DNA from: Dehalococcoidia bacterium
GTDB taxonomy: Bacteria > Chloroflexota > Dehalococcoidia > Dehalococcoidales > W498
DNA: 64,000 nucleotides
Assembly: GCA_011170285.1 (NCBI GenBank)
Contig: DUEE01000002.1
Span: 64,253-128,252 of the forward strand
Direction: 5' to 3'
Made by a program: the position numbers and the translations under genes. This document shows positions 44,340 to 63,613 of this stretch, one piece after another; positions within the stretch are counted from its first letter, which is position 1; each line of letters starts with the position of its first letter. The notes under the pieces were generated by a model. The model was not told the DNA's origin and ran no database searches. It saw only the letters and a list, made by a program, of their open reading frames with translations.

Positions 44340-45986
44340 GTGAGAGGCAGTAAAATTTTCCGTATCCTGGTATCAGGCATTATCCTTGTCCTGCTGGTGG
44401 TAGCATTCCCTGCTATTCCTATCCACGCCACGGGTGAGAATATTACTATCGACCCCGATGAGGGTGAAATCGGTGACAATATTGAGATTCTTGGCTACGA
44501 TTTCGATGCTAATTACAGGGTATATATCTACTTTTCTAGTTATAAAGCCGATGTCGGTGACAACATTGATGGGCTTGATGCCTATGAGGAGGTGGAAAGA
44601 GCCTTCACCACAGTCGATGGTACTTTTAATACTAATTTTGTCGTACCTTATACACTTACCGATGGGTATCATACAGAAGATGTGCACGGCGGCTACTATT
44701 ATGTATATATCACCTATCGCAACAGCGTCCGCATAGAAGCCACTGCCAAGTTTAGTATAATCAAAGGTGAAATTGAGCTAGACCCTGAAAAGGGTCTAGT
44801 GGGTAGTGAGGTCACGATTAGCGGTGAGGAGCTCCGCCAGGGTCAAATAATTACCATTGAATATGATTATGATGTTGTTGATATAGTTAGTGGGGATAAG
44901 GCAACCGATAGCGAAGGCAAATTCAACTGCACCATTATCGTCCCTGAGAGCATTACTGGCAACCATACTATAACCGTTACCGATGAATCTGGTAATAAGC
45001 CTGAGGCTGAGTTCATCGTGAAACCTAAAATAACTGTATCCCCAACCTCATCGTCTGGAGGAAACACGGTAGAGGTTAGCGGCGCCGGTTTTGCAAAAAA
45101 GGAATACATAACCGTTACCTTTGATGGTAACAGGGTTTCCACTAATCCCATAGCAATAAAAACTAATCATAAGGGCAGCTTCACTGGCAGCTTCCTTGTG
45201 CCTTCCAACACCACCAGCGGCATCAGTGAGGTAAGAGCCAGAGACCGTAGCGCCAATAAGGCTAATGTAGATTTGACTATTTCGGCTGGCATCAGTCTCA
45301 GTCCAACGACAAGTCAGACATTGCCTGGTTATGTCGGCATAGAGCTTACCATTTACGGCAGCGGATTCATTAACAACACCCTGGTTACCATCACCTATAG
45401 TAACAGTGAGGTCATCACTGTAGCTAAAGCACCTACTGATGTTTACGGTAATTTCTTGGCGACCTTTACTGTCCCGCCCAGCGTGGCTGGCAACCATCTT
45501 GTAACTGCCACTGATGTTACCAACACGGTAATATCAATCTTTACTATGGAAGCACAAGCACCGCCAATACCAGTGCCACGGTTACCAAAAGTTGCCGGTA
45601 TGTCAAATGCAGAAGCATATTTTGACTGGGAGGATGTTGAGGATGCCAGCGGCGTAACTTATGCTCTCCAGGTTGCCACTGATGCTGATTTTGCAATCAT
45701 AGTGCTGGAAAAGAAGGGATTAACTCACTCGGAACACACTATCGCTAAAGAGGAGAGGCTAGAACCAACCAAGAAGAAAACCCCCTACTACTGGAGGGTG
45801 AAGGCAGTAGATAGTGCCTCCAACGAGAGTGATTGGACACACCCGGTGTTATTCTATGTTGGCTCTTCTTGGACTTCAGTCTCAAGCTGGCCCATCTATA
45901 TATGGATAGGTCTTGGTGTGGTGTTACTCACTATTCTTGGCTTCTGGTTGCGAAGAAGACTCACCCAGCATCGAGATATTGGGTAA
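44340..45986 (+). CDS. Membrane-anchored surface protein with four Ig-like (IPT/TIG-type) repeats and an FN3-like domain
   Basis: 548 aa with an N-terminal signal/TM. Repeats start ITIDPDEGEIGD.., IELDPEKGLVGS.., ITVSPTSSSGGN.. and ISLSPTTSQTLPG... They are followed by YYWRVKAVDSASNESDW and a C-terminal TM plus RRRL. Confidence 0.7.
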   Translation: MRGSKIFRILVSGIILVLLVVAFPAIPIHATGENITIDPDEGEIGDNIEILGYDFDANYRVYIYFSSYKADVGDNIDGLDAYEEVERAFTTVDGTFNTNFVVPYTLTDGYHTEDVHGGYYYVYITYRNSVRIEATAKFSIIKGEIELDPEKGLVGSEVTISGEELRQGQIITIEYDYDVVDIVSGDKATDSEGKFNCTIIVPESITGNHTITVTDESGNKPEAEFIVKPKITVSPTSSSGGNTVEVSGAGFAKKEYITVTFDGNRVSTNPIAIKTNHKGSFTGSFLVPSNTTSGISEVRARDRSANKANVDLTISAGISLSPTTSQTLPGYVGIELTIYGSGFINNTLVTITYSNSEVITVAKAPTDVYGNFLATFTVPPSVAGNHLVTATDVTNTVISIFTMEAQAPPIPVPRLPKVAGMSNAEAYFDWEDVEDASGVTYALQVATDADFAIIVLEKKGLTHSEHTIAKEERLEPTKKKTPYYWRVKAVDSASNESDWTHPVLFYVGSSWTSVSSWPIYIWIGLGVVLLTILGFWLRRRLTQHRDIG

Positions 45987-46179: not shown

Positions 46180-46383
46180 ATGGCAAGTCCTAATGAGACG
46201 AACATAATGCTGACAATAAGCGACGTAGCTCGCCTTCTCAATGTGCATATTAATACAGTAAGGCGGTGGAGTAATCAGGGAATACTAAAGGCATACCGAA
46301 TCGGCTCACGAGGTGATAGAAGATTTCACCAGGAGGATATCGACAGCTTCCTTTCCCAGCAGACCGAAAATAGCCAGCAGTGA
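46180..46383 (+). CDS. Excisionase/MerR-type helix-turn-helix DNA-binding protein
   Basis: 67 aa. LTISDVARLLNVHINTVRRWSNQGILKAYRIGSRGDRRFHQEDIDSFL matches the Xis-family HTH_17 pattern. Confidence 0.75.
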   Translation: MASPNETNIMLTISDVARLLNVHINTVRRWSNQGILKAYRIGSRGDRRFHQEDIDSFLSQQTENSQQ

Positions 46384-46473: not shown

Positions 46474-47157
46474 GTGAACGGAATCACAGTAATGATAATT
46501 GATAAGCAAGCGTTTTTCCGGGCTGGTATGTGCCAGGCACTATCTCGGCAATCTGATTTCAAAATAGTAGACTGTGACCCATCTCAAGAGCCATTGGAGT
46601 TAATTGAAGCCAATTCTCCAGATGTTGTCCTGCTGGACATTGACTTTCCTGTTCTCAGCGGGCTTGAACTAGGTAGAAATATCGTACGACGCTACCCAAG
46701 TACTAAAGTGGTGCTACTAAGTTCCAACCATAATGATGACGAGCTTTTTGAAGTTATCAAAACTGGAGCAGTAGCTTACCTCAGAAAGAACACCACTGCT
46801 GAAGAGCTAGTTAGCATTATACACCGAGCTTGTAATGGTGAATACCCTATAAATAACAGCCTTATAGCTAGACCAAAGGTCGCTGAACATGTATTAAAGC
46901 AATTTCAAGAAACAGTATCAATGGGAAAAAAGATCGACAGTCTAATTGCCCACCTTACCCATAGGGAGTCGCAGATTCTAAACTACATTGCTAATGGCAA
47001 CTCAAATAAACAAATCGCCCGTATATTAGAAATCAGTGAGCAAACAATTAAGAATCATGTTAGCTCCATCCTTCGCAAGCTAAATGCTAATGATAGAGCC
47101 CATGCCGTTGCCTTAGCCATGCGCAACGGCTGGATTTCAGCGGAAGTAAAACCATAA
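46474..47157 (+). CDS. NarL/LuxR-family response regulator (REC plus HTH)
   Basis: 227 aa with receiver Asp in VVLLDIDFP, the S and K positions present, and a C-terminal LTHRESQIL..NKQIA..ISEQTIKNHVSSILRKL. No adjacent kinase. Confidence 0.88.
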   Translation: MNGITVMIIDKQAFFRAGMCQALSRQSDFKIVDCDPSQEPLELIEANSPDVVLLDIDFPVLSGLELGRNIVRRYPSTKVVLLSSNHNDDELFEVIKTGAVAYLRKNTTAEELVSIIHRACNGEYPINNSLIARPKVAEHVLKQFQETVSMGKKIDSLIAHLTHRESQILNYIANGNSNKQIARILEISEQTIKNHVSSILRKLNANDRAHAVALAMRNGWISAEVKP

Positions 47158-47346: not shown

Positions 47347-49662
47347 TTGGAAACCGATATGGAGCTAAGAGCCCAGATTAGAGAGTATCTGCAAAATCAG
47401 GGCTATGAAATAACCGAGGGGGCTAAGCTCCCCGGGAAATCAGGTGTTGAGCATATGTTTGACATACTGGCTCAAAGAGACGATGGTTTTACCAACCACA
47501 CCGTTGCCGTCTATATTGCTGCCGGGGGTGATAGGGAAATGGAGGTAGACACTATTTTCAGCTTTGCCAACAAAGCCTATGATGCTGGCATTCATGACCG
47601 AATCCTTGTTGCCACCCCTGAACTTAGTCAGGAGGCGAAACAGTTGGCTCACAAGCAGCGGATAAAGATTATGGATGGAGAACGAATAAAGTCATTATTA
47701 GATTTAGAGCCTGCGCCACCGGTTAAACCAAAGGAGCCCCTTAAGTTTGAAACAAACGAGCAATTAGTGATATCTTTAGCCAATCTGGGCTATAGAGTTG
47801 AGGAGAAAGCCAGAGTTCGAGGCCGGTCAGGAGTTGAATATACCTTTGATATATTGGCTTATATTGACATTGACCAGGTTAGTCACGGGCTAGGTATAGA
47901 TTTCCTGAACGGGGAGAAGGAAGTGAGTCTGGAGCAGATATCATTATTTGATACTAAAGCCTACGATGCCGGCATTGATGATAAAATCATTGTGGTATCA
48001 GCAGGGCTTAGCCCTGAAGCGCGGCAATTTGCCCAGCTACAGCAGATAAAAGTCCTTGAGGCAAACAAAAAAAACCCTTCTCAACCCACGGTGACTGAAG
48101 AAAAACCTGCCCCACCCAAGGAGAACCCGGCTAAGTTAGACGAGTTAGTAGCCCCAGCGGCTAAGTCTATGGTCAAATCTTTGAGGCATGCACCTCAGAC
48201 TGAAACATTGCAATTGATTCCTGAAGTGATGGCGCGAAGATATAATGCCATACCCTTGACTATATCTGATAACACATTAGAGGTGGCTATGGCAGACCCA
48301 ACCGACATCTTTGCCCTGGAGGCTTTCTCTGCCCTGAGCCAGATGATGATTAAGCCTATAGCCGCCAGTGCCAAGGCAGTCAGGGAGGCTATTGACTTTA
48401 ATTATAAAGGCTATGGCGCAATTGAACAGCAGCTTTCTCGTATCTCTACCCCCAGTGACGCAGTTGAAGACAGATTTGACATCAGGGTTGATACTGATGC
48501 CCCTCTGGCTCAGGCTCTTACCCTTATTATTGAAGAGGCAATCAAAGCCCGCTCATCTGACATTCACATTGAGCCTGAAGAGGATAGGTTGAGGATACGC
48601 TATCGTATTGATGGCACTCTTCAGGATATGATGTCTCTGCCTATGACCATACATCCGGCTCTCATTTCTCGAATCAAAATCCTGTCCGATATGAATATTG
48701 CTGACCGTCATCGTCCACAAGATGGTCAGTTTTCTACCGAGGTAAAAGGGCGACAGATAGATGTGCGAGTAGCTACTGCTCCCATTGTTAATGGTGAGAT
48801 GGCCGATTTGCGACTTCTGGACAAGTCAATGGCTACTCTAGGATTATCCGAACTTGGTATGTTACCTTATAGCCTGGAAAAGTATGAGAATGTACTCAAG
48901 ATTCCCTATGGCATGATTCTGATTAGCGGTCCTACCGGAGCCGGTAAGACCACTACCCTATATGCTTCAATCAATTCCCTTGACTGCCTGGGGAGAAACA
49001 TAATTACCATTGAAGACCCGGCAGAGTATCGGTTTAAGGATATCAATCAGATTCAGGTCAATCCTCAAGCTGGCATTACCTTCGCTACTGGCTTGAGGTC
49101 TATACTTCGTCTTGACCCCGATGTAATAATGGTCGGTGAGATACGCGATACCGAAACAGCTAACATATCGGTTCAGGCAGCCTTAACCGGGCATCTGATG
49201 TTATCCTCGGTCCATGCCAACGATGCGGCTGGTGTGCTATCCCGTCTCCTTGACCTGGACATAGAGCCTTTTCTAGTCGCGTCAGCAGTTATTGGTGTTG
49301 TCGCTCAGCGGATGGTGCGCCGCATTTGCCCTGATTGCAGCCGTCCTATAGAAGCGCCGTCAATAGAGAGGATGGCTTATGAAAGAGAAATCGGGGAGAA
49401 ACGGACTGAATTCCTGTATGGCACCGGTTGTCAGTCATGTGCTTATACCGGTTATCTGGGTCGAACGGGAATCTTTGAAATTCTAACTATGAGTGATACT
49501 ATAAGAACAATGCTTCCCAGCCAACCCAGTAGTAGCCAGATTCGTACTCAGGCACTTAAAGAAGGGATGGTAACGATTATGAACGATGGTATGCGTAAGG
49601 TAAAGGCTGATATCACTACCCCGTCTGAAGTGCTGCGTAATGCCTACTCTGGTGACTACTAA
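47347..49662 (+). CDS. pilB: Type IV pilus assembly ATPase (GspE/PilB family) with a novel duplicated N-terminal module
   Basis: 771 aa with T2SSE_N (LQLIPEVMARRYNAIPL..), Walker A GPTGAGKT, DPDVIMVGEIRD, GHLMLSSVHAN and the tetracysteine CPDC..CQSC. Residues 7-240 are two copies of an unassigned module. Confidence 0.9.
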   Translation: METDMELRAQIREYLQNQGYEITEGAKLPGKSGVEHMFDILAQRDDGFTNHTVAVYIAAGGDREMEVDTIFSFANKAYDAGIHDRILVATPELSQEAKQLAHKQRIKIMDGERIKSLLDLEPAPPVKPKEPLKFETNEQLVISLANLGYRVEEKARVRGRSGVEYTFDILAYIDIDQVSHGLGIDFLNGEKEVSLEQISLFDTKAYDAGIDDKIIVVSAGLSPEARQFAQLQQIKVLEANKKNPSQPTVTEEKPAPPKENPAKLDELVAPAAKSMVKSLRHAPQTETLQLIPEVMARRYNAIPLTISDNTLEVAMADPTDIFALEAFSALSQMMIKPIAASAKAVREAIDFNYKGYGAIEQQLSRISTPSDAVEDRFDIRVDTDAPLAQALTLIIEEAIKARSSDIHIEPEEDRLRIRYRIDGTLQDMMSLPMTIHPALISRIKILSDMNIADRHRPQDGQFSTEVKGRQIDVRVATAPIVNGEMADLRLLDKSMATLGLSELGMLPYSLEKYENVLKIPYGMILISGPTGAGKTTTLYASINSLDCLGRNIITIEDPAEYRFKDINQIQVNPQAGITFATGLRSILRLDPDVIMVGEIRDTETANISVQAALTGHLMLSSVHANDAAGVLSRLLDLDIEPFLVASAVIGVVAQRMVRRICPDCSRPIEAPSIERMAYEREIGEKRTEFLYGTGCQSCAYTGYLGRTGIFEILTMSDTIRTMLPSQPSSSQIRTQALKEGMVTIMNDGMRKVKADITTPSEVLRNAYSGDY

Positions 49663-49674
49663 CTTGGAGGTTTA

Positions 49675-50886
49675 ATGGAATTCAATTATGTAGCTTATAC
49701 TGAAGACAAAAGATTGGTCAAAGGTAAACTTTCGGCTACCAGTGAGGAAGCGGCCATCAATCTACTCAGTTATGGTGGCTATCAGGTGGTTAACCTGAAA
49801 TCGTTCACTCCCTTTTTCAATACAGAAAAGCTGGCAGCCTACTTTTCCCGGATACAGCCAAGGGAAATTATAATGTTCTCCCGTCAGTTGGCGTTACTCC
49901 TTGAAACAGGTACTGATATTGTCGCCTCTTTAGAGCTATTACAAAGCCAGGTAACCAATCGCAGCCTAAAAAAGGTAATTGGCGAGGTTGCCTCTGACAT
50001 TCGCGGTGGCAGTTCGTTATCAGCCGCTCTAAGTAAACACCCTCGGGCTTTCCCTGAAATCTACCATCGGACAATAGCTGCTGGTGAGCAGGGCGGCAAT
50101 CTAGACATAGTGCTAAGACAAATGGCTGATCATTTTGAGAGGGGAGTTACCACGGAAAAGAAGATTAAGAATGCCCTGACCTATCCCTTTATTGTTGCCT
50201 TTGTAGCCGTTATAGTGATAGGTATATTGGTTACCTTTGTTTTGCCCACCTTTACTAGCTTATACACTGCATTTGGGTCTGACTTACCCCCGGCAACGCA
50301 GATACTTATTAGTGTGTCTGATTGGTTTAGCCATTACGGGCTTTATATGCTGCTAGCACTACTGGCGGTTGCTGTCTTAGGCTTTGCCTACATCAAAACC
50401 CCAGCCGGTAAATATCAGTGGGACAGTATAATGCTCAGACTACCCGTATTGGGGCGCATTAACCTCCTTGGCGAGCTTTCCCGCTGTTGCCGAATCATAT
50501 CTCTACTATTCAGGGTTGGCTTGCCCTTACCTGAAATCATGACTATGTCTATTCAAGGCAGCAATAATAAGGTTGTGGCTGAGGCTCTAACTGGAATTCA
50601 GCAGGAGTTAGTGAGGGGCGAAGGCTTATCCAAACCTATGGCAAGGAGTAAGCTCTTCCTCCCCTTAATGGTGCAGATGACTGGAGTCGGTGAGGAAACC
50701 GGTAACCTTGACAACACACTAGCCACTGTAGCTGATAGCTATGAGATGGAGGCTGATGATAGGACTAGCTCGGCGGTGGCACTTATTCAACCAGCTATGA
50801 TTTTAATTATCGCCTTGGTAGTTGGTTTTATTGCTGTGTCTATGGTTTCAGCTATGTATTCCATCTATGGGCAGATGGGTGTCTAG
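49675..50886 (+). CDS. pilC: Type IV pilus platform protein (GspF/PilC family)
   Basis: 403 aa with two T2SSF repeats and 3 TM segments. Confidence 0.9.
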   Translation: MEFNYVAYTEDKRLVKGKLSATSEEAAINLLSYGGYQVVNLKSFTPFFNTEKLAAYFSRIQPREIIMFSRQLALLLETGTDIVASLELLQSQVTNRSLKKVIGEVASDIRGGSSLSAALSKHPRAFPEIYHRTIAAGEQGGNLDIVLRQMADHFERGVTTEKKIKNALTYPFIVAFVAVIVIGILVTFVLPTFTSLYTAFGSDLPPATQILISVSDWFSHYGLYMLLALLAVAVLGFAYIKTPAGKYQWDSIMLRLPVLGRINLLGELSRCCRIISLLFRVGLPLPEIMTMSIQGSNNKVVAEALTGIQQELVRGEGLSKPMARSKLFLPLMVQMTGVGEETGNLDNTLATVADSYEMEADDRTSSAVALIQPAMILIIALVVGFIAVSMVSAMYSIYGQMGV

Positions 50887-50898
50887 GAGACGAGACTT

Positions 50899-51321
50899 AT
50901 GAAAAATGAAAAGGGATTCAGCCTGATAGAGGTGCTGGTAGCCCTGGCTTTGCTGGGCATAATTGCGGCTGCCTTTCTCGGTGGTATAGCTACTGCCTCT
51001 AAAGCTGCCCTTATTGCCGATAAGCGAACCAATGCTGAAAGCCTGGCCCGAACTCAGATGGAATATGTCAGGGAGCAGGCTTATAGTATTGCTCCTTGGG
51101 ATTACACGGTCACTTCTTCACAACGTAGTTCAACAGACCAACCATCTTGGTGGAATAATGATAACCCGCCATTGCTTTCTAATAATTATGATGGCTATAC
51201 CGCTAATGTCATCGCCGAGCTTTTACATGATACTGACGATGGCATCCAGCAAATAACTGTAACCGTTAGTCATGGTGGGGAAGCGGTAATTACATTAAAG
51301 AGTTATAGATCAGTGCGATGA
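50899..51321 (+). CDS. Prepilin-type N-terminal cleavage/methylation domain protein (minor pilin)
   Basis: Class III signal MKNEKG/FSLIEVLVALALLGI. Confidence 0.8.
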   Translation: MKNEKGFSLIEVLVALALLGIIAAAFLGGIATASKAALIADKRTNAESLARTQMEYVREQAYSIAPWDYTVTSSQRSSTDQPSWWNNDNPPLLSNNYDGYTANVIAELLHDTDDGIQQITVTVSHGGEAVITLKSYRSVR

Positions 51322-51881
51322 TATTTCACAGGCTAAGGTTGATAAACAAAAACCAGAGGGGCTTTACCTTAATAGAGATATTAGTAGCCCTGGCTATTAC
51401 CGGTCTCATTACCGGGGGTATTACTGGGACTATTTTCCAGGTGATTACCATAGAGGCCCGCACCTCCAATCATATGACCGCAGTCAGACAGGTGCAGAAT
51501 GCTGGCTTCTGGGTCAGTCGCGACGCTACTATGGCTCAGACTGTGGATCTTGAGTGGCAAGGAGAAACCCCGTCAGGTTCAAAGTTTCCTCTTAAATTAA
51601 CCTGGACCGAATGGGATAATAATGAGAAGTATGAGGTTATTTATACCCTGCAAAATATGATTGGCGGACCCAAGCAGCTCCAGAGACAGCATTTGACTTA
51701 CGATGCTGACGGCTATGAAATAGGGAATGAGACGACCATTTTGGCCCAATATATTATCCCTGGCGTAGGCCAGACTCGTCTTGATTTTACCGATGGCAAG
51801 CTTACTCTAACGGTAACTGCCACCGTGGAGAGACAAAGTGAGACCAGAACATATGAGGTTATCCCCAGACCCGGCATGTAA
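51318..51881 (+). CDS. Prepilin-type N-terminal cleavage/methylation domain protein (minor pilin)
   Basis: NQRG/FTLIEILVALAITGL. ATGA overlap with the upstream gene. Confidence 0.75.
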   Translation: MIFHRLRLINKNQRGFTLIEILVALAITGLITGGITGTIFQVITIEARTSNHMTAVRQVQNAGFWVSRDATMAQTVDLEWQGETPSGSKFPLKLTWTEWDNNEKYEVIYTLQNMIGGPKQLQRQHLTYDADGYEIGNETTILAQYIIPGVGQTRLDFTDGKLTLTVTATVERQSETRTYEVIPRPGM

Positions 51882-51906
51882 GGTACAAAGGGAGTATGGT
51901 AGTAAG

Positions 51907-54312
51907 ATGAAAAAAATGTCATTGGAAAAAATAATCAAAAACGAGACGGGACAGGTGATGATTATGGTCCTGATTCTGCTGGTGGTAGGCAGTCTTATCA
52001 TTACCCCGCTCCTGGCTTATGTGAGCACCGGGCTTAATGTTGGACGAGAAGTCTATGAAGAAAAGATGGATAGTTTTTATGCCGCTGACTCTGGGGTTGA
52101 GGACGCCTTATGGCAAATAAAGTATGACAAGCTAACCGAGTTATTCGAATATGATACTCCCGCGTATGACCCGTATGCCTATTATGAATACAGCTCTTCA
52201 AACCAATGGGATTATTACCTATCCGAGCCGATAAATGGCGATAGCGTAAATGTTACCATAGGAAATAGCTGGATTCCTCAGATAACACCAATCCCAGATG
52301 AGGACGAGGCGAGGCTAATTATTGAGGGTATCGACAACGAGCCTCCCAAGCTGATAATAGTTGGTAGTGTCTCAGGGACTTCAGAATATCAAATCAAGAT
52401 ATACTATTACAAAGAGGATACAGATGACCCTTTGGAAGTAGAATCGCTAGGCATATGGCTACCACCCGGCTTCAACTATGATGTAGATGGACAGGAAGAG
52501 GATGACTTTGAGGCTTACCTAGAGGCCAATTTCCCAGGGGATTATTCTAGGAAAATCACCACTCACAATGGTGGTGAAGCTGTAGTCTGGACTTTCAGTC
52601 CCGCTGTTCTCTTTACTGACTTACCAGAGGTTAACCCACAGGACCAGCCAATGGAGAGCATTATCACCTTCCAATTTACTGGTCCATTGGGGCAGAGTCC
52701 CGGAGCCGTTTCCTGGATAGATACCAACTTGGACTTAAGTGGCGGTGCCGATATTACCTATACCTGGGATGCCGATATTAAAGTCTATAAGATTACCTCC
52801 ACGGCTACTGATACTACTACCGATAAGCAAACTATTGTTGAAGCTTATACTGCCAAATGTGAGCTGCGGAAACTGGGCTCAGCCATAGGCGGAGAATACC
52901 GGGCTGCAGGCGCTACCTTAATGATAGACGAGAATCCTTGGCATAAGCCGCCGATAAGAGATACCTTGCTTGGTGCGAGCAGTGTCGAGGTTGACGATAT
53001 CCCGGTTGATGCCGAAGTGGAAAAAGCTTATCTTTACTGGTCAGCCTGGCTAGCGGATACTGGCGAGGAAATACTATTCTGGGACTATTGTACAGACCTT
53101 GATAACGGGAATTGGGATTACGGTAGTGATTGGCACGAATCTGGGTCTTCTACTGCGTTTTACGCGCATCATGATGGTGGTGGCAGAGAACTTAAAATGG
53201 AAAATACGCTGGATTTACACGCTTACGAACCTGAAACGGTTACCGCTTCCTGGCGAAATTGGACATACCGTAGCTGGCCGCAAGGAAGTGATGATTGTCT
53301 TCAATATGGCTTCTATGATAACGGTAGCAGCAGTTGGGACTGGTATAGTGACCTTGGGATCTGCGGAAACATTGGTACGTCTCCAGTAAATTACACTGTT
53401 ACTGTTCCTGATACGTATTTGACCAGTACCTTTAAGATAGGGTTTAGGATACAAAGCTACAGTGATGATAACGAGTATATCTACATAGATAATGTCAAAA
53501 TCTCTGTGCAGACAGGGACGATAGCCGATACCTCAGCTATTTTTAAGATAGATGGTGACCAGGTTTACTTTGATGAAGGTGGTGTTCCCACTAAAGGTGC
53601 TGAGGAGATAACCGCTTCTGAATGGTCACTCCTGGAGAATGAACCTGGTGAGTATTCCTATTCTTGCTATCTGGATGTAACCCAATTGGTCAGGACATTT
53701 TCTGACGAGGGCGATAACGGTAATTACCCCGGTAATGCTACCTACATCGTTGGTGGCGTAGATGGGGACACGGGTAACGAATGGTCCTACGCTGCTTGGT
53801 CGCTGATAATCATCTACTCCAGCCCTGAGACGCACGGGCACCAGCTCTATCTGTATGATGACTTTATCTACTCTGGTATGAACTGCAATGTTGATTTTGA
53901 TGGCGATGGCGAAGAAGGGGGCACGATTAGTGGCTTCTTGGTTCCAGAGCCTATTAGGGACCCTGATACCGGTGAAATCATCGAAGAGAACGCGGCTAAA
54001 CTGACCTGCTTTGTCGGCGAGGGGGATGATTACTATAACGATGATTATCTCAAATTTAATGGGACTCGTCTCTCTGATGGTAAAACCAAATGGGATGTGT
54101 GGAACTCGTGGTCTCTGGGGATGAGCGAGGATGGCATAGATATTGATACCTTTTATGTTACCTGGGCGAGTGACCTATTGAAGCCAGAGGATACATCAGC
54201 TCAGGTGGACTTACCTACGGAGACTGACTCCTGGAACTTAGTCTATATCATCCTCTCCTTCCGCAGTGCGACCACCACCGGTGGCACTATGACCTACCTG
54301 GTGAGGGGATAA
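51907..54312 (+). CDS. Large PilX/TadG-like pilus-associated protein (putative tip or adhesin)
   Basis: ATG 51907 (behind AGGGAG) gives about 801 aa. The N-terminus ETGQVMIMVLILLVVGSLIITPLLAY is a PilX_N-like hydrophobic helix without the GFTLxE signal. The remainder is acidic and Trp/Tyr/Asp-rich. Confidence 0.6.
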   Translation: MKKMSLEKIIKNETGQVMIMVLILLVVGSLIITPLLAYVSTGLNVGREVYEEKMDSFYAADSGVEDALWQIKYDKLTELFEYDTPAYDPYAYYEYSSSNQWDYYLSEPINGDSVNVTIGNSWIPQITPIPDEDEARLIIEGIDNEPPKLIIVGSVSGTSEYQIKIYYYKEDTDDPLEVESLGIWLPPGFNYDVDGQEEDDFEAYLEANFPGDYSRKITTHNGGEAVVWTFSPAVLFTDLPEVNPQDQPMESIITFQFTGPLGQSPGAVSWIDTNLDLSGGADITYTWDADIKVYKITSTATDTTTDKQTIVEAYTAKCELRKLGSAIGGEYRAAGATLMIDENPWHKPPIRDTLLGASSVEVDDIPVDAEVEKAYLYWSAWLADTGEEILFWDYCTDLDNGNWDYGSDWHESGSSTAFYAHHDGGGRELKMENTLDLHAYEPETVTASWRNWTYRSWPQGSDDCLQYGFYDNGSSSWDWYSDLGICGNIGTSPVNYTVTVPDTYLTSTFKIGFRIQSYSDDNEYIYIDNVKISVQTGTIADTSAIFKIDGDQVYFDEGGVPTKGAEEITASEWSLLENEPGEYSYSCYLDVTQLVRTFSDEGDNGNYPGNATYIVGGVDGDTGNEWSYAAWSLIIIYSSPETHGHQLYLYDDFIYSGMNCNVDFDGDGEEGGTISGFLVPEPIRDPDTGEIIEENAAKLTCFVGEGDDYYNDDYLKFNGTRLSDGKTKWDVWNSWSLGMSEDGIDIDTFYVTWASDLLKPEDTSAQVDLPTETDSWNLVYIILSFRSATTTGGTMTYLVRG

Positions 54313-55994: not shown

Positions 55995-56582
55995 ATGAGG
56001 ATAAGTAAAACAGCTAAATTAATTCTGGGTATTGGCGTTTTTATCATCGCCGTGGGCGTGCTGGGTTGGGTCTATCTTGAACAGAGGGGTGAGCAGCAGC
56101 GGCTAGATAATAGCCTATCGTTGGCTCAATCTACCCTGCCTACCGTTACTTCACAAAGGGAGGGTCTGGAAAGCCGACTGACCGAAGTGGATACCAAACT
56201 AGCTGAAGCTGAATTATTGCTTGATGGGACAAAGGCAAGTTTCCCTGAATCGGTGGAGAGCATTGAATACGATGAGACAATATTTGACATTGCTGATGAT
56301 TGTAACCTAAAGATAATCAATCTCACTGCGTCAGAGCCACGCGACAAAGAGGATGAGGATATTACCTACTACATTACCTCGTTTGAAGTAGAAGTGGAGG
56401 GCACGGTGGCTCATATCCTTAATTTCATAGAAACCATAGCTACCAGCGACTTCTCACCCGGTGAAACTAGCTTCGTCAACGCCTATATTGAGGCAGTGAG
56501 TATGTCAATTCCTGAACCTGGAGAAGACGAGCAACCGTCAGCTAATATCAGTCTGGCTATATATGGCTATCGAGGTGAATAA
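55995..56582 (+). CDS. pilO: PilO-like pilus assembly protein
   Basis: 195 aa with an N-terminal TM, a coiled coil and a C-terminal alpha/beta domain, adjacent to pilMN. Assigned from architecture only. Confidence 0.6.
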   Translation: MRISKTAKLILGIGVFIIAVGVLGWVYLEQRGEQQRLDNSLSLAQSTLPTVTSQREGLESRLTEVDTKLAEAELLLDGTKASFPESVESIEYDETIFDIADDCNLKIINLTASEPRDKEDEDITYYITSFEVEVEGTVAHILNFIETIATSDFSPGETSFVNAYIEAVSMSIPEPGEDEQPSANISLAIYGYRGE

Positions 56583-56584
56583 CT

Positions 56585-58045
56585 ATGGCAAAGACAGTTA
56601 CTACACTATTTATTAGAGATGATATCATTAACCTGCTGGTAGTTGAGGGCAAGCAGATAAAGCAGTGGGCTAGACTACCACTGGAGCCGGGTCTGGTTAG
56701 GCAAGGGCTTGTTCTTGATGAAGAACAGGTAGCAGATAAGCTCAAAGAGCTATTCAAGCTGGAGAAGGTAAGCACTGATAAGGTCATCGTTGGTTTGAGC
56801 GGGCACAATTCCCTGTATCGCTTGCTAACTCTGCCTGACTTGCCTGAGGCAGTAGTCGCCGAGGCAGTAAGGCATGAAGCCAGAAGAGTGATTCCAGTGC
56901 CTATGGACGAGGTTTACCTTTCATACCAGCTTGTTCCTGCCCCCGAGAAGGAAAGACATGTTTTCCTGGCTGCTTTCCCCCGCAATTTGGTTGATGCCTT
57001 AATCAGGACGCTAAAGCAGGCAGGCATTGAGCCCTATATTATGGACTTGTCCCCGCTAGCCCTGTGCCGAACCCTGTTTGAGCCCAGAGGTATCATTGTC
57101 AATGCCAAGTTAGACCATCTTAACATTATGGTTATGGAAGATAGGCTGCCCGAAGTAATCCGCAGGCTCACCCTACCCGGCGAGGCTAAATCCTTATCGG
57201 AAAAACTGCCCACTATTATTGAAGAGCTTAATAGAACTGTTGCCTTCTATAATTCTAGCCATCAGGATAAGCCTATAGATTCAACCATGCCTGTATTTGT
57301 CTGCGGTGACTTAGCCGAGACACCGGAGAGCTGGCAACCACTGGTTAGTCAGTTGAGCTATTCATTCTCAGCATTACCATCGCCTCTGGAATCCCCTGAA
57401 GGCTTCAATGCCAACGAGTTTATGGTCAATATCGGACTGGCTCTGAAGGAGCTATCACCTGAGAAGTGGGGGATAAACCTCTCATTGGTCAATTTTAATA
57501 CCTTACCTGATGTTTACCTGTCCAAGCCCCTGCGTGTGTCACAAATCCTTATCCCGGCTGGTATCACCGTCGGCATAGGCTTAGTTATCTTTTTGGCATT
57601 TTTTACTTGGAACGGTATGGCTCATAATAAGGTATTGCGCTCCCAACTGGCACCTATTGAGAGCCAAATTAGCCTTGAGCGCGCAGAAATAGCGACCTTG
57701 CAGGAGCAGATAGGACTGATACAAGCCCAGATTGAGCCAGTAGAAACCACCTACAGTATTCTTAATACTACACTTACCTATCTGGGAGAAAGTCGTGAAG
57801 TTGTTGATGGAGATTTAAGTGAGATTGACCGCTTAAAGCCAACCACAGTAGACTTTACTGAGGTTAATCATACCGGTGATACGGTAACTGTCAGTGGCGT
57901 AGCGCCCGATGAGAAAAAGATTTTTAAATATGCTGCGGATTTAAGAAGCTGTGATAGAAACTTTACAGTTATTATATCATCTATTACTGCGATGAGTGAC
58001 GATGAAGGGTTTTATTTCGATTTTCTCCTGAAACACGACGGGTAG
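56585..58045 (+). CDS. pilM: PilM-PilN fusion protein
   Basis: 486 aa. Residues 1-~300 are an actin-like PilM. A TM helix follows (ILIPAGITVGIGLVIFLAFFTW), then a coiled coil and a PilN-like C-terminal domain. Confidence 0.78.
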   Translation: MAKTVTTLFIRDDIINLLVVEGKQIKQWARLPLEPGLVRQGLVLDEEQVADKLKELFKLEKVSTDKVIVGLSGHNSLYRLLTLPDLPEAVVAEAVRHEARRVIPVPMDEVYLSYQLVPAPEKERHVFLAAFPRNLVDALIRTLKQAGIEPYIMDLSPLALCRTLFEPRGIIVNAKLDHLNIMVMEDRLPEVIRRLTLPGEAKSLSEKLPTIIEELNRTVAFYNSSHQDKPIDSTMPVFVCGDLAETPESWQPLVSQLSYSFSALPSPLESPEGFNANEFMVNIGLALKELSPEKWGINLSLVNFNTLPDVYLSKPLRVSQILIPAGITVGIGLVIFLAFFTWNGMAHNKVLRSQLAPIESQISLERAEIATLQEQIGLIQAQIEPVETTYSILNTTLTYLGESREVVDGDLSEIDRLKPTTVDFTEVNHTGDTVTVSGVAPDEKKIFKYAADLRSCDRNFTVIISSITAMSDDEGFYFDFLLKHDG

Positions 58046-58056
58046 GAGGTTAAGAT

Positions 58057-59127
58057 ATGGATATTTTTTCATTGTTTAATTTAGCCAAATCCCAGGGCGC
58101 TTCTGATTTGCATATGGTTGTCTCCAGTCCGCCGCTACTGCGTATTAATGGCTTTCTACGGGTAGTGGATGGTGTGATGCCGCTAACCGCTGATGACATA
58201 AACCAGGCTTTTCTCCAGATAACCACCCCCGAGGAAAGGGAGGAATTCCAGCAGCATCTGGAGCTTGATTTCGGCTATAGCCTGCCTGAAGTTGGTCACC
58301 TCCGCTGTAACGCTGCCCAACAGCGTGGAGCTATCAGCCTGGCGGTGCGTCTGTTGCCGGCCAAAATACCCACCATAGATGAGCTGGAGTTACCCCAGTT
58401 ATGTAAGGAGTTTGCCTTAAAGCAGCGAGGACTGGCAATAGTTACCGGACCTACTGGCAGTGGTAAAAGCACTACCCTGGCAGCTATGGTAAACCACTTA
58501 AATATGAATGAGAGCCGCCATATAGTTACTATTGAGGATCCTATTGAATATGTCCACCCCACTATTAAATGTGCTGTAACCCAGCGCCAGTTAGGCTCTG
58601 ATACTCTATCTTTTGCCACCGCCCTGAGACATGTCTTAAGGCAGGACCCTGATGTCATTCTGGTGGGTGAGATGAGGGATTTAGATACTGCGGCGGCGGT
58701 GCTTACCATAGCTGAGACCGGGCACTTGATACTATCCACTGGTCATGCCCCCAGCGCGGCTCAATCAATGGAGAGAATAATAGATTTATTTCCACCCCAT
58801 GAGCGCCATCTAGCCCAGACACGGCTAGCTTCTTTACTTATTGGTGTGCTATGTCAGACGCTTGTTCCCCGAGTTGACGGCTCGGGGAGGATAGCTGCCG
58901 TTGAGGTTATGATAGCTAATCCAGCGGTGAAGAACCTCATCCGTGAGGGTAAAATCTACCAGTTACCTAATGTAATTCGCACTCATCGGGATATAGGCAT
59001 GATTTCACTAGACGAAGCCCTGGTTGACCTCTATCTTAAGCGGATAATCAATGGCGAAATCCTGCTTGCCTTCTGCAATGACCGCCAAGAGGTAGAAAAG
59101 CTTATCGGCAAGGTAGTGGTGGTGTAA
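58057..59127 (+). CDS. pilT: Type IV pilus retraction ATPase PilT
   Basis: 356 aa with GASDLHM, Walker A GPTGSGKST, DPDVILVGEMRD and GHLILSTGHA. Confidence 0.92.
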   Translation: MDIFSLFNLAKSQGASDLHMVVSSPPLLRINGFLRVVDGVMPLTADDINQAFLQITTPEEREEFQQHLELDFGYSLPEVGHLRCNAAQQRGAISLAVRLLPAKIPTIDELELPQLCKEFALKQRGLAIVTGPTGSGKSTTLAAMVNHLNMNESRHIVTIEDPIEYVHPTIKCAVTQRQLGSDTLSFATALRHVLRQDPDVILVGEMRDLDTAAAVLTIAETGHLILSTGHAPSAAQSMERIIDLFPPHERHLAQTRLASLLIGVLCQTLVPRVDGSGRIAAVEVMIANPAVKNLIREGKIYQLPNVIRTHRDIGMISLDEALVDLYLKRIINGEILLAFCNDRQEVEKLIGKVVVV

Positions 59128-59374: not shown

Positions 59375-59486
59375 CTGACTGTTGATAGCTGACCGCTGAC
59401 TATTGACTAATGACTAATCACTATTGACTAATGACTATTGATTGCTGAAAGCTATTAGCTATAAGCTATTTGCTGGCTGCTTAGAT
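59375..59486 (+). repeat. Heptanucleotide tract T2 (16 degenerate units, consensus NTGACTA)
   Basis: ctgactg ttgatag ctgaccg ctgacta ttgacta atgacta atcacta ttgacta atgacta ttgattg ctgaaag ctattag ctataag ctatttg ctggctg cttagat. Confidence 0.85.
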
Positions 59487-59579
59487 ATAGCAAAGCCCAG
59501 TGGCGAGGTAGAAGTAAAACCAACTCCCTTATACTCTCCTTTACAATTTAATCACTCCCAGATATACTACCAGTGGAAA

Positions 59580-59807
59580 ATGGGAAGGAAACTTAGAGGC
59601 ATAAGTGGGCAAGAAGCTATCGAAGCTTTTAAGAAATTTGGCTATAGCCAGAGGAAGGGTAAAGGAAGCCATGTAAATCTGGTTAAGCCTGGAAGCAATA
59701 GGCTGACTATACCGCTCCATACTGAATTAAGCGTGGGGTTATTAGCCAATGAAATAAAAAAGGCTGGTTTAACCGTGGAAGAATTTCAAGAGCTTCTAGG
59801 GAGGTGA
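59580..59807 (+). CDS. hicA: HicA-family toxin (pair 3)
   Basis: From M47 of the track ORF: MGRKLRGISGQEAIEAFKKFGYSQRKGKGSHVNLVKPG... The upstream part of the track ORF is a translated heptamer tract. Confidence 0.85.
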   Translation: MGRKLRGISGQEAIEAFKKFGYSQRKGKGSHVNLVKPGSNRLTIPLHTELSVGLLANEIKKAGLTVEEFQELLGR

Positions 59808-59810
59808 CAA

Positions 59811-60035
59811 ATGGAGGCTATGGAATATACAGTGATTTTGCACTGGGATGAAGAATATAACGGTTACTGGATAGAAGTACCGGCATTACCTGGCTGTGTC
59901 TCCCAGGGTAAAAGCAAAGAGGAGGCGTTAGCTAATATCAAAGAAGCTATTGAACTACACCTTGAGTGTTTGGAAGAAGACGGCGAGGTCATACCCAAGG
60001 AAGAATCTTACCGAATAGCTGTAGCTGCCAAATAA
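59811..60035 (+). CDS. hicB: HicB-family antitoxin (pair 3)
   Basis: 74 aa with YTVILHWDEEYNGYWIEVPALPGCVSQGKSKEEALANIKEAIELHLE. Confidence 0.88.
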   Translation: MEAMEYTVILHWDEEYNGYWIEVPALPGCVSQGKSKEEALANIKEAIELHLECLEEDGEVIPKEESYRIAVAAK

Positions 60036-60951: not shown

Positions 60952-61332
60952 TTAGGCTTTGGCGCCTTGAGTTGTCACGCCATCAATCAAAATAGTATAT
61001 GTGTATTCAGTCGGGTTTAGTAGGTACTTTTGCGGGTCATTAACAGCAGTAACACCAGTAGGGTCTAGCTGCGCGGCGGTATAAGTCACTATAACCGGAC
61101 TCATACCGGCAGCTGTCCCCTCAACCATTGCCGCCGTTACTGCTACCAGCACATTAGCCAGTTCCGTCTCAGCCGCCTCTGATTCACCACTGCCAATAAA
61201 CCGGGCGACGGCAGGGATGGCTACTGCTGCCAGGACACCCAGAATAGCTACTACCACCAGCAGCTCAATCAGTGTGAAACCCTTCTCACCATAACGAAAC
61301 GATTTCTTGAACTTACTTATAAACCTCCTCAT
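60952..61332 (-). CDS. pilA: Major type IV pilin candidate (prepilin-type N-terminal domain)
   Basis: 126 aa with leader ...RYGEKG/FTLIELLVVVAILGVLAAVAIP. Strong SD (AAGGAAGGAGG). Small size and a dedicated terminator suggest the major subunit. Confidence 0.82.
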   Translation of the reverse strand: MRRFISKFKKSFRYGEKGFTLIELLVVVAILGVLAAVAIPAVARFIGSGESEAAETELANVLVAVTAAMVEGTAAGMSPVIVTYTAAQLDPTGVTAVNDPQKYLLNPTEYTYTILIDGVTTQGAKA

Positions 61333-62245: not shown

Positions 62246-63613
62246 TTAGCTAGATGGCTCCAGATCGTTAACCTCAAAGACCTTGATTTTCTGCCTCTGG
62301 GCAAACTGGCGGGCTTCCTGGGTAAGCCCGGGAACGGCAATAAAGACCTTAGCTAGAATACCTATATCATAAGCCTTATCATCAAAATCAAATACCTTCT
62401 CTAATCCCACCGCCTCCTCAGCTAGCTCAATGCCGACAACAACACGATGAGTAATGATGGCGTCATCCCTGGTAGCCAGTATGTCTATACTGTGTTCTGC
62501 CCCTGACCTGCCTGTAACCTCAGTATTTTCCTCTATTTCGTAGTCTTGCTGCTTTAAGTATTCTATAAACTGTGACTTGGAGTTAAATTCAAAGGGCTCT
62601 CTTTTTACCCCCTCGCTGGGCTTGGGGACACCGCCAGCCAGCACCGTCTCCAAATCCTTAACTCCAAGTACATTTATTCTCTGCAGACTGGCATATTTCT
62701 CCGCCTCTTTGCCTAAAGCGGGGGCAACAACCAGAATTTTATCGTGAATACCTATATCATAGGCTATATCATCAAAGTTAAATATCTCTCCCAGCCCTAT
62801 CTCATCTCCAGCCACCTTAATCCCAATAGCGATATTACAAGTAATAACACCATCATCCCTGGTAGCCAGTATATCTATACTGTGTTTTGCCCCTGACCTG
62901 CCTTTAACCTCTGCATTTTCCTTTACTTCATAGCCGCGCTTTTTCAAAAATTCTATGAGTTGTGATTTGGGCTTAAGTTCAAATTCCAGCCAGCCTCTCT
63001 TTGCCTCATTGAAACGATAAGAATAGACATTTACCTCACTAACACCATCCTCAGCGGTAAGCGACGAGCATTTCAGGCAGCGCCATTTTATTATGGGTAT
63101 GTTGAATACCTCATCGCAATCGCGGCACTTGCGCAGCATCCCCAGGCTACGGTAGTCACTGCCAATAGTCCGTAGCTCCTGCCCACACTTGGGGCATATA
63201 TACCTACCTTTGTGGATAAACTCGGCTTCAAGCCCAACATATTTACAGACAAAGTGCTCAAATACCCTGCCCCGGGGAATATTCCCTGAGCCACACTTAG
63301 GACAACGGGTAGAGGGTCTCAAAACTACCGACAGACACTGGGGACAGTGAATGAACTTATCAAAGAACTCCCTTTTCACTATACCCTTATCAGCCAGTAA
63401 TTCTAAAGTTGATACCACTTCCCCTCCCTTAACGGCTAATACTTGCTCAACTGCTGGATAGATGAAGCCCAGTTCACTGGTGAAATCAAGCTCCGGTCTA
63501 ATATCAACAATCCTCCCCGCTAGCATTTCTGCCCCCAGTCTCATTGCCTTTTCATTCTGCTCAATTTGTGTGGCTGGGGTAGTATTATTTACAGGCTCAT
63601 TTACTTCAGCCAA
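62246..63613 (-). CDS. Multi-zinc-ribbon protein with two C-terminal copies of the PilB N-terminal module
   Basis: 455 aa. Residues ~30-85 are a possible winged-helix region. Residues 90-182 carry five CxxC pairs (C90/93, C104/107, C140/143, C163/166, C179/182). Residues 216-322 and 346-452 are the module GY/DYE[VI].EN.EV.GRSGA.HSIDILATRDD...AYDIGI..K[IV]...P.L..EA..[YF]A..Q.I.V. Confidence 0.7.
   Translation of the reverse strand: MAEVNEPVNNTTPATQIEQNEKAMRLGAEMLAGRIVDIRPELDFTSELGFIYPAVEQVLAVKGGEVVSTLELLADKGIVKREFFDKFIHCPQCLSVVLRPSTRCPKCGSGNIPRGRVFEHFVCKYVGLEAEFIHKGRYICPKCGQELRTIGSDYRSLGMLRKCRDCDEVFNIPIIKWRCLKCSSLTAEDGVSEVNVYSYRFNEAKRGWLEFELKPKSQLIEFLKKRGYEVKENAEVKGRSGAKHSIDILATRDDGVITCNIAIGIKVAGDEIGLGEIFNFDDIAYDIGIHDKILVVAPALGKEAEKYASLQRINVLGVKDLETVLAGGVPKPSEGVKREPFEFNSKSQFIEYLKQQDYEIEENTEVTGRSGAEHSIDILATRDDAIITHRVVVGIELAEEAVGLEKVFDFDDKAYDIGILAKVFIAVPGLTQEARQFAQRQKIKVFEVNDLEPSS

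Follow-up and report, generated by a model that had tools for sequence, protein, structure and literature searches.

A PilB/GspE-type pilus-extension ATPase, encoded in the window analysed here (a 64,000-nucleotide stretch of DNA from a Dehalococcoidia bacterium), begins with two tandem modules that are homologous to the Mrr_cat family of the PD-(D/E)xK superfamily, adopt its fold and have lost its catalytic motif. These inactive restriction-endonuclease-fold modules (iRE) precede an intact ATPase core, and both the fusion and its gene neighbourhood are conserved. The Mrr_cat family and the presence of TackOD1 in archaeal pilus loci are already known. Switching of pilus-extension ATPases is understood mainly via c-di-GMP, through MshEN and PilZ-FimX, and to our knowledge next to nothing is known of it in Chloroflexota and in most archaea. 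The window locus presents a different N-terminal head of such an ATPase, a tandem of dead restriction-endonuclease folds tied to TackOD1, and so an orphan signalling domain leads to a testable hypothesis of surface-structure and biofilm control common to archaea and bacteria.

Genes of the pilus locus and the four module copies

The genes and domains concerned are the following.

46180..46383, + strand: small HTH_17/MerR-type regulator, 67 aa, opening the conserved operon (Pfam HTH_17, E 7e-15)
46474..47157, + strand: response regulator, REC + LuxR/GerE-HTH, directly upstream of the ATPase gene (Pfam Response_reg, GerE)
47347..49662, + strand: PilB/GspE-type pilus extension ATPase, 771 aa, with two N-terminal iRE modules
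47359..47691, + strand: iRE module 1, about aa 5-115 (family profile E 1.4e-46; Pfam Mrr_cat aa 8-118)
47743..48063, + strand: iRE module 2, about aa 133-239 (family profile E 7.8e-42; 39% identical to module 1)
48190..48405, + strand: T2SSE_N / MshEN-model segment, aa 282-353 (Pfam PF05157, E 1.2e-14)
48493..49638, + strand: T2SSE ATPase core, aa 383-764 (Pfam PF00437, E 1.3e-123)
49675..50886, + strand: PilC/GspF platform protein (Pfam T2SSF, E 4e-58)
50899..51881, + strand: two prepilin-type (N_methyl) minor pilin genes (Pfam N_methyl)
51838..54312, + strand: protein of 824 aa, hydrophobic segment at the N-terminus (synteny across related pilus clusters; no Pfam match)
55995..59127, + strand: 195-aa protein, then PilM(-N) and PilT-type ATPase genes (Pfam PilM_2, T2SSE; synteny)
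60952..61332, - strand: type IV pilin gene, downstream of the TackOD1 gene in the same orientation (Pfam N_methyl)
62246..63613, - strand: TackOD1 + two iRE modules, 455 aa (TackOD1 at 63014-63556; iRE at 62645-62977 and 62270-62587)

The 195-aa protein has a single hydrophobic segment, is syntenic and has no Pfam match, and 'PilO-like' serves as a working label only.

The paralogous modules at the N-terminus of PilB are each about 108 aa long and share 43 of 109 positions (E 3e-25, BLASTP). The original prediction had described such a pair ahead of the ATPase core at 47365-48066, which corresponds to aa 7-240 of the 771-aa protein, together with a standard T2SSE_N segment and a standard core; all of these were recovered. 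It had also counted four copies at the locus, and when the window was scanned in six frames with the family profile, exactly four appeared (E 1e-42 to 1e-46): the two in PilB and, on the reverse strand, the two in the TackOD1 protein. PilB aa 1-250 is collinear with aa 205-455 of the latter protein, linker included, with 41% identity (E 3e-61).

Family assignment, fold and loss of the catalytic motif

The modules had been described as unassigned, a view that did not hold, as the Mrr_cat model (PF04471) matches two stretches within aa 8-240 at 41.5 bits for the whole PilB and 47.2 bits for aa 1-250 (cut-off 21), and also matches the TackOD1 protein (E 1.6e-14). NA-iREase1 (PF22722), whose cut-off is 27, gives a borderline match of 27.3 bits with the whole PilB and 32.3 bits with aa 1-250, and is outscored by Mrr_cat. 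This NACHT-associated family likewise has a restriction-endonuclease fold, is described in Pfam as inactive and is N-terminal on an NTPase. The iRE modules, however, are joined to a PilB/GspE secretion ATPase or to TackOD1 instead of to a NACHT/STAND NTPase; PilB has no NACHT domain, and P-loop matches in its ATPase core are all sub-threshold.

An AlphaFold2 model of PilB aa 1-250 (pLDDT 84.6, pTM 0.71) consists of two alpha-beta-beta-beta-alpha-beta(-alpha-beta) units. In module 1 the elements are H2-17, E21-29, E35-45, E50-58, H63-80, E84-89, H95-103 and E106-110, and their order is the same in module 2. A pTM of 0.71 for a two-domain chain suggests that the units pack against each other. 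The top Foldseek match in the PDB is the Mrr-like AF1548 (1y88; E 6e-6, rmsd 2.2 over 105 columns), followed by the nuclease domains of Can2/Cdn1 and by MspJI, NucS/EndoMS and the R2 endonuclease, with a probability of 1.00 for 1y88, Can2, MspJI and NucS. The kinship with PD-(D/E)xK proteins that had been surmised from the strand pattern is thus borne out by the Mrr_cat match and the fold. Against the sequences of the PDB, a profile built from 4 sequences matched only 1y88, and marginally (E 0.35), and one built from 28 sequences matched nothing; a solved structure of a close relative therefore appears to be lacking. The full-length model of the TackOD1 protein (pLDDT 84.6) matched only restriction-endonuclease domains in Foldseek, with no match informative on TackOD1.

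iRE and Mrr_cat proteins such as AF1548 have in common, besides the sequence match and the alpha-beta-beta-beta-alpha-beta fold, the G-x-S-G loop and the Asp of beta2, which is retained in the PilB modules (D39, D168) and in 192 of 210 family modules. The (E/Q)xK of beta3, in contrast, gives way to small or hydrophobic residues in the iRE subfamily, and the face at the ExK site carries Ala, Gly, Ser or Thr. The subfamily also has a K-A-Y-D-x-G-I signature of its own closing helix 2, and is usually found as a tandem pair on signalling or pilus proteins instead of restriction-modification components. A (D/E)xK, also when Q is allowed, is absent from all four window modules; any [DEQ]xK between beta2 and alpha2 occurs in only 27 of the 210 modules, at scattered positions, and the family has no conserved (D/E)xK column. 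The iRE modules are therefore probably not nucleases, in agreement with the non-catalytic nature originally proposed for them. A polar set, G-[KR]-S-G, H33, D36, K73, Y75, D76 and Q101 (profile numbering), is kept at both repeat positions and in all contexts, including the single-copy archaeal forms.

It is scarcely credible that the modules still cut DNA, for example in pilus-mediated DNA uptake or in a defence process using the ATPase. Their membership of Mrr_cat in Pfam and the retained beta2 Asp would fit such an activity, and catalytic residues are relocated in some PD-(D/E)xK enzymes, so that a relocated residue is conceivable where inactivity is read from the sequence. However, besides the missing motif, the PADLOC defence models gave no match, the partners of iRE are signalling domains, with no methylase, helicase or other component of defence among them, and the borderline match to NA-iREase1 is one to a family of inactive enzymes.

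ATPase core and absence of the c-di-GMP motif

The core motifs of PilB are intact: Walker A GPTGAGKT at 528, the Asp box at 590, the His box at 615, and the zinc motifs CPDC and CQSC at 661 and 695. The motif check that covered GPTGAGKT, CPDC and CQSC also found DPDVIMVGEIRD and GHLMLSSVH. Judged from these motifs, the pilus-extension ATPase beneath the iRE head is predicted to be fully functional. The NCBIfam models for GspE and PilB both match with scores below their equivalog cut-offs, and the ATPase subtype is therefore left unassigned.

MshEN_N, a c-di-GMP receptor, is located at the N-terminus of MshE/PilB-type ATPases and binds its ligand through two tandem 24-residue motifs, RLGxx(L/V/I)(L/V/I)xxG(L/V/I)(L/V/I)xxxxLxxxLxxQ (Wang et al., 2016; PMC5013675). 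Like the iRE tandem, it is an N-terminal accessory domain that precedes T2SSE_N in a pilus ATPase, and it too is linked to glycosyltransferases (PMC5013675), but its fold is unrelated, a four-helix bundle that carries the two motifs. The motif was absent from the 771-aa PilB and from the PilB of locus L001 in both its strict and its published relaxed form, and the Pfam MshEN match is confined to aa 282-353, a segment that lacks the c-di-GMP-binding four-helix part. The N-terminus of this PilB is accordingly unlike the known PilB sensors, as had been supposed, and the module does not correspond to any characterised PilB accessory domain. A literature search found nothing relevant on a restriction-endonuclease-like domain on PilB or as an input domain of KaiC.

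Distribution, fusion and neighbourhood

A single-module profile searched against 1.84 billion representative proteins gave only 925 matches. Among the best 150 plus 45 of these, the partners are mainly TackOD1, often as REC-TackOD1 and with one to three modules, or a PilB core, and more rarely REC-LuxR, REC, KaiC, PadR, wHTH or a zinc ribbon, in architectures such as PadR-iRE, iRE-wHTH, REC-LuxR-iRE, iRE-KaiC and iRE-REC. Nearly all of the best matches in which another domain was recognised thus carry TackOD1 or a PilB core, so that the module is not a promiscuous domain indifferent to pilus genes; iRE modules are a dedicated, non-promiscuous subfamily. Mean identities across the module classes are 33-41%, with no clear positional orthology from which a succession of duplications and fusions could be read.

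The iRE-PilB fusion is in frame in 11 of 11 Dehalococcoidia MAG loci, as ORFs of 761-798 aa where complete (that of L006 ends at a contig edge). In L003-L005 the tandem is a separate ORF abutting PilB; the split may be genuine or may stem from frameshifts introduced in long-read assemblies, and these loci were counted neither for nor against the fusion. In all 14 loci from L003 to L016 the immediate upstream neighbour of the module-bearing PilB is a REC + LuxR/GerE-HTH regulator, and a small HTH_17/MerR gene is found at the equivalent position in L003, L004 and L005. In L001 and L002 a TackOD1 protein with two modules is encoded directly upstream of a PilB that has none. The occurrence of both the split and the fused arrangement therefore links the iRE tandem to PilB.

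The TackOD1 assignment of the 455-aa protein is unambiguous in Pfam (PF18551, 136.4 bits against a cut-off of 32, E 1e-39). Its cysteines, which form multiple CxxC motifs, are almost invariant in the family alignment. TackOD1 (arCOG06883) has been described as a response-regulator output domain of thaumarchaeal type IV pilus loci and, in the parts of these accounts available to us, as a cysteine-rich domain of about 200 aa with no mention of a C-terminal restriction-endonuclease-like module (Galperin et al., 2018, PMC5847659; Makarova et al., 2016, PMC4858521). The corresponding part of the 2018 description calls its function obscure and records archaeal REC-wHTH-TackOD1 architectures (PMC5847659). 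As in the thaumarchaeal loci, the TackOD1 protein of the window lies within a pilus cluster. Unlike in the available text of the published description, one to three iRE modules follow TackOD1 in every protein recovered here, all of which were found through the iRE module, so that a TackOD1 protein lacking it would escape the sampling. The combination also occurs in Nitrososphaerales (P0190, 324 aa), and a REC domain stands at the start of every long form tested; the forms of Dehalococcoidia are additionally tied to a bacterial-type PilB. TackOD1-iREx2 followed by a pilin gene recurs in L023, L025, L026, L027 and L031, and in all five metagenome loci with enough flanking sequence it closes the same pilus cluster beside the pilin gene; in L025 the PilB carries an iRE module as well.

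At loci elsewhere than the window, module-bearing regulators adjoin membrane GT2 synthases of the processive type, three of four of which contain the QxxRW motif; each of these loci (L017-L021, L046) has a single module-bearing protein. Among proteins found through iRE, TackOD1 thus has that module as its constant companion, and two targets recur, namely the PilB operon and the processive-type GT2 synthases. The presence of iRE on PilB, zinc-ribbon, response-regulator and KaiC-type proteins beside pilus and polysaccharide-synthase genes suggests a control module of cell-surface machines that has not been described before.

Possible roles of the modules

We tentatively favour, at a little less than an even chance, a non-catalytic regulatory head in which the dead Mrr-type tandem couples PilB to TackOD1 and two-component signalling. 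The tandem would fold as a compact pseudo-dimer at the N-terminal place taken by the c-di-GMP-binding MshEN_N bundle in MshE/PilB-type ATPases. Through association of module with module, or of module with PilB, it might then link the hexameric ATPase to a pathway of TackOD1 and two-component signalling, and pilus extension would be switched by this pathway and not by c-di-GMP. That the module regulates the ATPase through protein contacts is what we infer. A comparable arrangement is known from the effector-associated domains (EADs) of NTPase conflict systems, in which the presence of a non-enzymatic domain both on the core NTPase and on the product of a nearby gene is taken to indicate homotypic recruitment (Kaur et al., 2020, PMC7159879). 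The folds differ, and the biology there is that of conflict systems, here that of pilus assembly. Moreover, many iRE loci hold one module-bearing protein only: iRE is found on both the NTPase and a separate neighbour in the window and in L025, but not in L001/L002 or the GT2 loci. Because L001/L002, L017-L021 and L046 each have a single module-bearing protein, pairing of modules cannot be the general function of iRE. The polar residues conserved across contexts and the combinations with HTH, REC and KaiC fit a ligand-binding sensor equally well, and count against an adaptor.

Nearly as likely as a regulatory head, if by itself rather doubtful, is a receptor role, in which the module binds a small-molecule or nucleic-acid ligand, most plausibly a nucleotide-type second messenger or a sugar nucleotide, and serves as a signal-input domain like MshEN_N or PilZ that is reused on PilB, TackOD1 regulators, KaiC ATPases and transcription factors. 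PadR-iRE, iRE-wHTH and REC-LuxR-iRE resemble one-component regulators, and iRE-KaiC, iRE-REC and iREx2-PilB are also sensor-type architectures. The polar set is conserved in every context and at both repeat positions, and the Ala/Gly/Ser/Thr face of beta3 could leave a pocket beside the retained Asp and the G-[KR]-S-G loop. A receptor would account for the loci with a single module-bearing protein and for the recurrence of module-bearing regulators at the PilB operon and the GT2 synthases, and the partner range of MshEN_N, fused to ATPases and glycosyltransferases, is the same (PMC5013675). On the other hand, the sources searched gave no ligand for Mrr_cat-type domains, and topology suggests that the conserved residues specific to the subfamily, D42/D43, K73, Y75, D76 and Q101, lie opposite the classical active-site cleft. 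In alpha/beta folds, ligand binding is rare at that pole. A more specific version, that iRE is a new kind of receptor for a signal within the cell, such as a nucleotide second messenger, co-regulating type IV pili and exopolysaccharide synthases in Nitrososphaerales, Thermoplasmatales and Dehalococcoidia, seems improbable. As far as we know these groups are largely without c-di-GMP signalling, and iRE would then be the functional counterpart of PilZ and MshEN_N on a dead restriction-endonuclease fold.

It is highly improbable that the modules act, with the TackOD1 zinc ribbons, as non-catalytic DNA binders, the TackOD1-iRE proteins being transcription factors for adjacent pilin, pilus or synthase genes and the PilB-borne copies tethering or titrating the ATPase on DNA or serving DNA uptake. 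Restriction-endonuclease folds ancestrally bind DNA, iRE-HTH fusions exist, and the window has TackOD1-iREx2 directly upstream of the major pilin gene in the same orientation; REC-wHTH-TackOD1 architectures are on record in the available part of the archaeal description (PMC5847659). A DNA-binding role, however, gives no evident reason for the in-frame fusion of the modules with a membrane-associated pilus ATPase, seen in 11 of 11 loci; HTH-bearing proteins would need no second DNA binder, and the family has no conserved basic surface motif save K/R28 and K73.

Annotation and assembly artefacts

P0012, in which a module is joined to HTH_17, was considered as a new partner combination and rejected: its HTH closely resembles the operon-leading gene at 46180-46383, it stems from a 1.7-kb contig, and it is a probable assembly chimera or rearrangement. 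Fragments of module-bearing PilB ATPases have been deposited under the name 'restriction endonuclease', a label that is a trap for annotation.

Modules of the PilB and TackOD1 proteins

The 771-aa PilB/GspE pilus extension ATPase of the window begins with two consecutive copies (a tandem) of a probably inactive restriction-endonuclease-fold unit, the iRE module. Two further copies are found in a protein containing TackOD1, a zinc-ribbon response-regulator output domain.

Module-bearing genes of the window
47347..49662, + strand: PilB/GspE ORF, 771 aa; two modules, MshEN/T2SSE_N segment, T2SSE core
62246..63613, - strand: TackOD1 protein; PF18551 (136 bits), then two further modules

In Pfam, aa 383-764 of PilB match the T2SSE ATPase core (E 1e-123) and aa 282-353 the MshEN/T2SSE_N model, and the ATPase part is intact, with Walker A, Asp box, His box and two CxxC motifs. 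The modules account for two Mrr_cat stretches (PF04471, 'Restriction endonuclease') within aa 8-240, which score 41.5 bits where the cut-off is 21. They are 39% identical to each other over 109 residues (E 3e-25), and aa 205-455 of the TackOD1 protein are collinear with PilB aa 1-250, linker included (41% identity, E 3e-61). Scanning all six frames of the 64-kb window with a profile gives four copies and no more. Paired PilB modules and four copies in the locus, as originally noted, are thus confirmed by Pfam, alignment and scan; the sole error of that description was to call the module unassigned, since Mrr_cat matches it above the cut-off.

PilB also has a borderline match to NA-iREase1 (PF22722), in Pfam a NACHT-associated inactive restriction endonuclease, to which the module is only marginally alike and whose NACHT context is absent here. 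MshEN_N, a c-di-GMP receptor, is unrelated to the module, and its 24-residue c-di-GMP motif, as given in PMC5013675, is absent from PilB under both a strict and a relaxed pattern.

Fold and loss of the catalytic motif

An AlphaFold2 model of PilB aa 1-250 built on 26 homologues (pLDDT 84.6, pTM 0.71) has two alpha-beta-beta-beta-alpha-beta-alpha-beta units, with a linker of low confidence (~aa 120-136) between them. Its top PDB match in Foldseek is the Mrr-like AF1548 (1y88; E 6e-6, rmsd 2.2 Å), followed by the nuclease domains of Can2/Cdn1, MspJI, NucS/EndoMS and R2 endonuclease; Rpb5 (subunit E of eukaryotic RNA polymerases) is also among the matches. In an alignment of 210 modules to the family profile, drawn from 186 database proteins plus both proteins of the window, the beta2 Asp was retained in 192, and no column held a conserved (D/E/Q)xK. 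This motif is absent from all four window modules and occurs anywhere from beta2 to helix 2 in only 27 of the 210, at scattered positions. In beta3, hydrophobic residues alternate with small ones (T/S, A/G, G/D/C). In one register the ECK of AF1548 pairs with N50-H51-T52 of module 1, and in another it falls close to profile columns 49-51; neither register places a catalytic motif opposite it. By sequence and structure the modules belong to the Mrr_cat family, as homologues of Mrr-type nucleases with the same fold, but they have lost the catalytic motif.

Residues conserved in the subfamily (profile numbering) are G-[KR]-S-G (27-30), H/Y33, D36, D-D-G (42-44), K-A-Y-D-x-G-I (73-79) and Q101. 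Their conservation extends to PilB-borne, TackOD1-borne, tandem and single-copy modules, and topology suggests that they would cluster in space.

The pilus locus

Eleven loci from GTDB genomes encode an in-frame tandem-PilB fusion; ten carry the labels Dehalococcoidia, Dehalococcoidales or Chloroflexia and one comes from a Calditrichales bin. The ORFs measure 761-798 aa (that of locus L006 ends at a contig edge). The conserved operon starts with a REC-LuxR regulator, module-PilB, PilC, two minor pilins and a large protein, and continues with a syntenic 195-aa protein (one hydrophobic segment, no Pfam match), PilM(N) and PilT. A small HTH_17 gene stands ahead of it in the window and in three more distant loci, L003-L005. 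In these three the tandem is an ORF of its own abutting or overlapping PilB (L003 10001-12433; L004 10001-12295; L005 10001-12314), which may reflect a genuine gene split or a frameshift. PilB and PilC are broken into pieces in L003 and L004, suggesting frameshift errors there; the split in L005 may be real. In L001 and L002, a module-less 513-aa PilB has a TackOD1-tandem gene 64 bp upstream and the same cluster after it.

Relatives of the window's TackOD1 protein with at least 63% identity are encoded at the distal end of this pilus cluster, directly upstream of a pilin gene and co-oriented with it in all five metagenome contigs with enough flank. The window has this layout, lengthened by HicAB cassettes. 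The joint presence of PilB-borne and TackOD1-borne tandems was judged in two loci only, the window and L025, where a module is visible at the PilB N-terminus. For the more distant relatives at 53-57% identity (L034, L036, L038), a LuxR-type regulator is all that lies close by.

Other genes of the window in or near the cluster
44340-45986: 548-aa secreted or anchored protein, Ig-like repeats, C-terminal hydrophobic segment
54521-55663, 59442-60035, 61685-62139: four HicA/HicB toxin-antitoxin pairs, inside and beside the cluster
60122-60481: 23S_rRNA_IVP gene (four-helix-bundle 'intervening sequence' protein), Pfam E 4e-36

The HicA/HicB pairs widen the spacing of the PilT, pilin and TackOD1 genes relative to related loci, and the 23S_rRNA_IVP gene is located between PilT and the pilin gene. 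The 548-aa protein precedes the operon and is syntenic in L006, L010 and L012 (46-69% identity), and may therefore be part of the pilus locus.

Distribution and annotation

A word-indexed search with PilB aa 1-250 returned 45 proteins, whose named sources are Dehalococcoidia or Chloroflexi, as fusions to MshEN+T2SSE, fusions to TackOD1 and short ORFs. An exhaustive HMMER search of 1.84 billion representatives with a single-module profile gave 925 matches at E<=1e-3 (184 at E<=1e-10). The related sequences are all metagenome-assembled and many are fragmentary. Among the best 150 of the 925 together with the 45, annotated locally and with Pfam, TackOD1 lies directly N-terminal to one, two or three modules, and the long forms tested (7/7) begin with a receiver domain (REC-...-TackOD1-module). 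The PilB core is a further partner; REC-LuxR-module, module-REC, module-KaiC ATPase, PadR-module, module-wHTH and module-zinc ribbon are rare. TackOD1 with just one module was recovered from Nitrososphaerales/Thaumarchaeota (P0190, 324 aa), and a tandem-KaiC form from Thermoplasmatales (L048 3096-4550).

A longer PilB variant (P0085 and cluster members P0236-P0240, 1099-1114 aa) has ~370 extra residues without a Pfam match between the tandem (aa 10-242) and MshEN (aa 625-694). The 288-aa P0012, from a 1.7-kb Logan contig, joins module 1 and half of module 2 to an HTH_17 that closely resembles the window's small pre-operon regulator (46180-46383); this architecture is probably not genuine but the product of a chimera or rearrangement.

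Precomputed Pfam annotation records TackOD1 alone for many module-bearing proteins, so the C-terminal module has been largely overlooked. ATPase fragments have been deposited as 'restriction endonuclease'. P0003 and P0190 are among the proteins with such annotation gaps. In two papers (PMC5847659; PMC4858521), TackOD1 is described as a cysteine-rich domain of ~200 aa that occurs in thaumarchaeal pilus loci and whose function is obscure; the terms 'restriction endonuclease', 'Mrr' and 'nuclease' occur in neither. In the open-access literature searched, no paper describes a PilB/GspE ATPase bearing a domain of restriction-endonuclease fold, or such a domain as a companion of TackOD1. Accessory regulatory domains are known on secretion ATPases, as is the use of inactive nuclease folds in signalling, and the arrangement is not categorically new.

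Possible role of the module

The fusion and the operon are conserved and the partners of the module are signalling domains; we infer that the tandem serves PilB as a regulatory head. The module itself is very probably a non-catalytic regulatory domain, which would tie the PilB ATPase to TackOD1 and the two-component pathway. This coupling may proceed through protein contacts, module to module or module to PilB, the mechanism that we tentatively favour. It is supported by the split/fused relation between L001 and the window, by the fact that PilB and the TackOD1 protein of the window share the tandem, and by the dimerising habit of the restriction-endonuclease-like fold.

The main rival, a ligand receptor, accounts better than contact coupling for loci with one module-bearing protein, for architectures resembling one-component regulators and for the invariant polar residues, and is a possible, if rather unlikely, role. 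Non-catalytic DNA binding is less likely than this and seems improbable; an active nuclease is hardly to be expected, and no PADLOC defence-system model matched.

Neighbouring GT2 synthases

TackOD1-module genes of Nitrososphaerales (L017-L019; L017 10001-12452) and REC-TackOD1-module genes of Chloroflexota (L020 10001-13069, L021 10001-13786) adjoin genes for membrane GT2 enzymes. These enzymes are orthologous (478-495 aa, 39-48% identical to each other) and match the Chitin_synth and Glyco_trans_2_3 models, of the chitin/cellulose-synthase type; QRxRW is found in two of the three. No such gene is present in the window. The GT2 genes are a second recurrent partner alongside those of the pilus, and the module is thus the constant element of regulators beside two kinds of surface-polymer machines. 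MshEN_N offers a parallel, having been reported in fusions with both ATPases and glycosyltransferases (PMC5013675). There is also an overlap between a module-KaiC fusion gene (L046 8001-10654 / L047 2051-4704) and the beginning of the gene for a more distant membrane GT2, whose motif is QQSRW; V4R and REC-KaiC genes lie near this pair.
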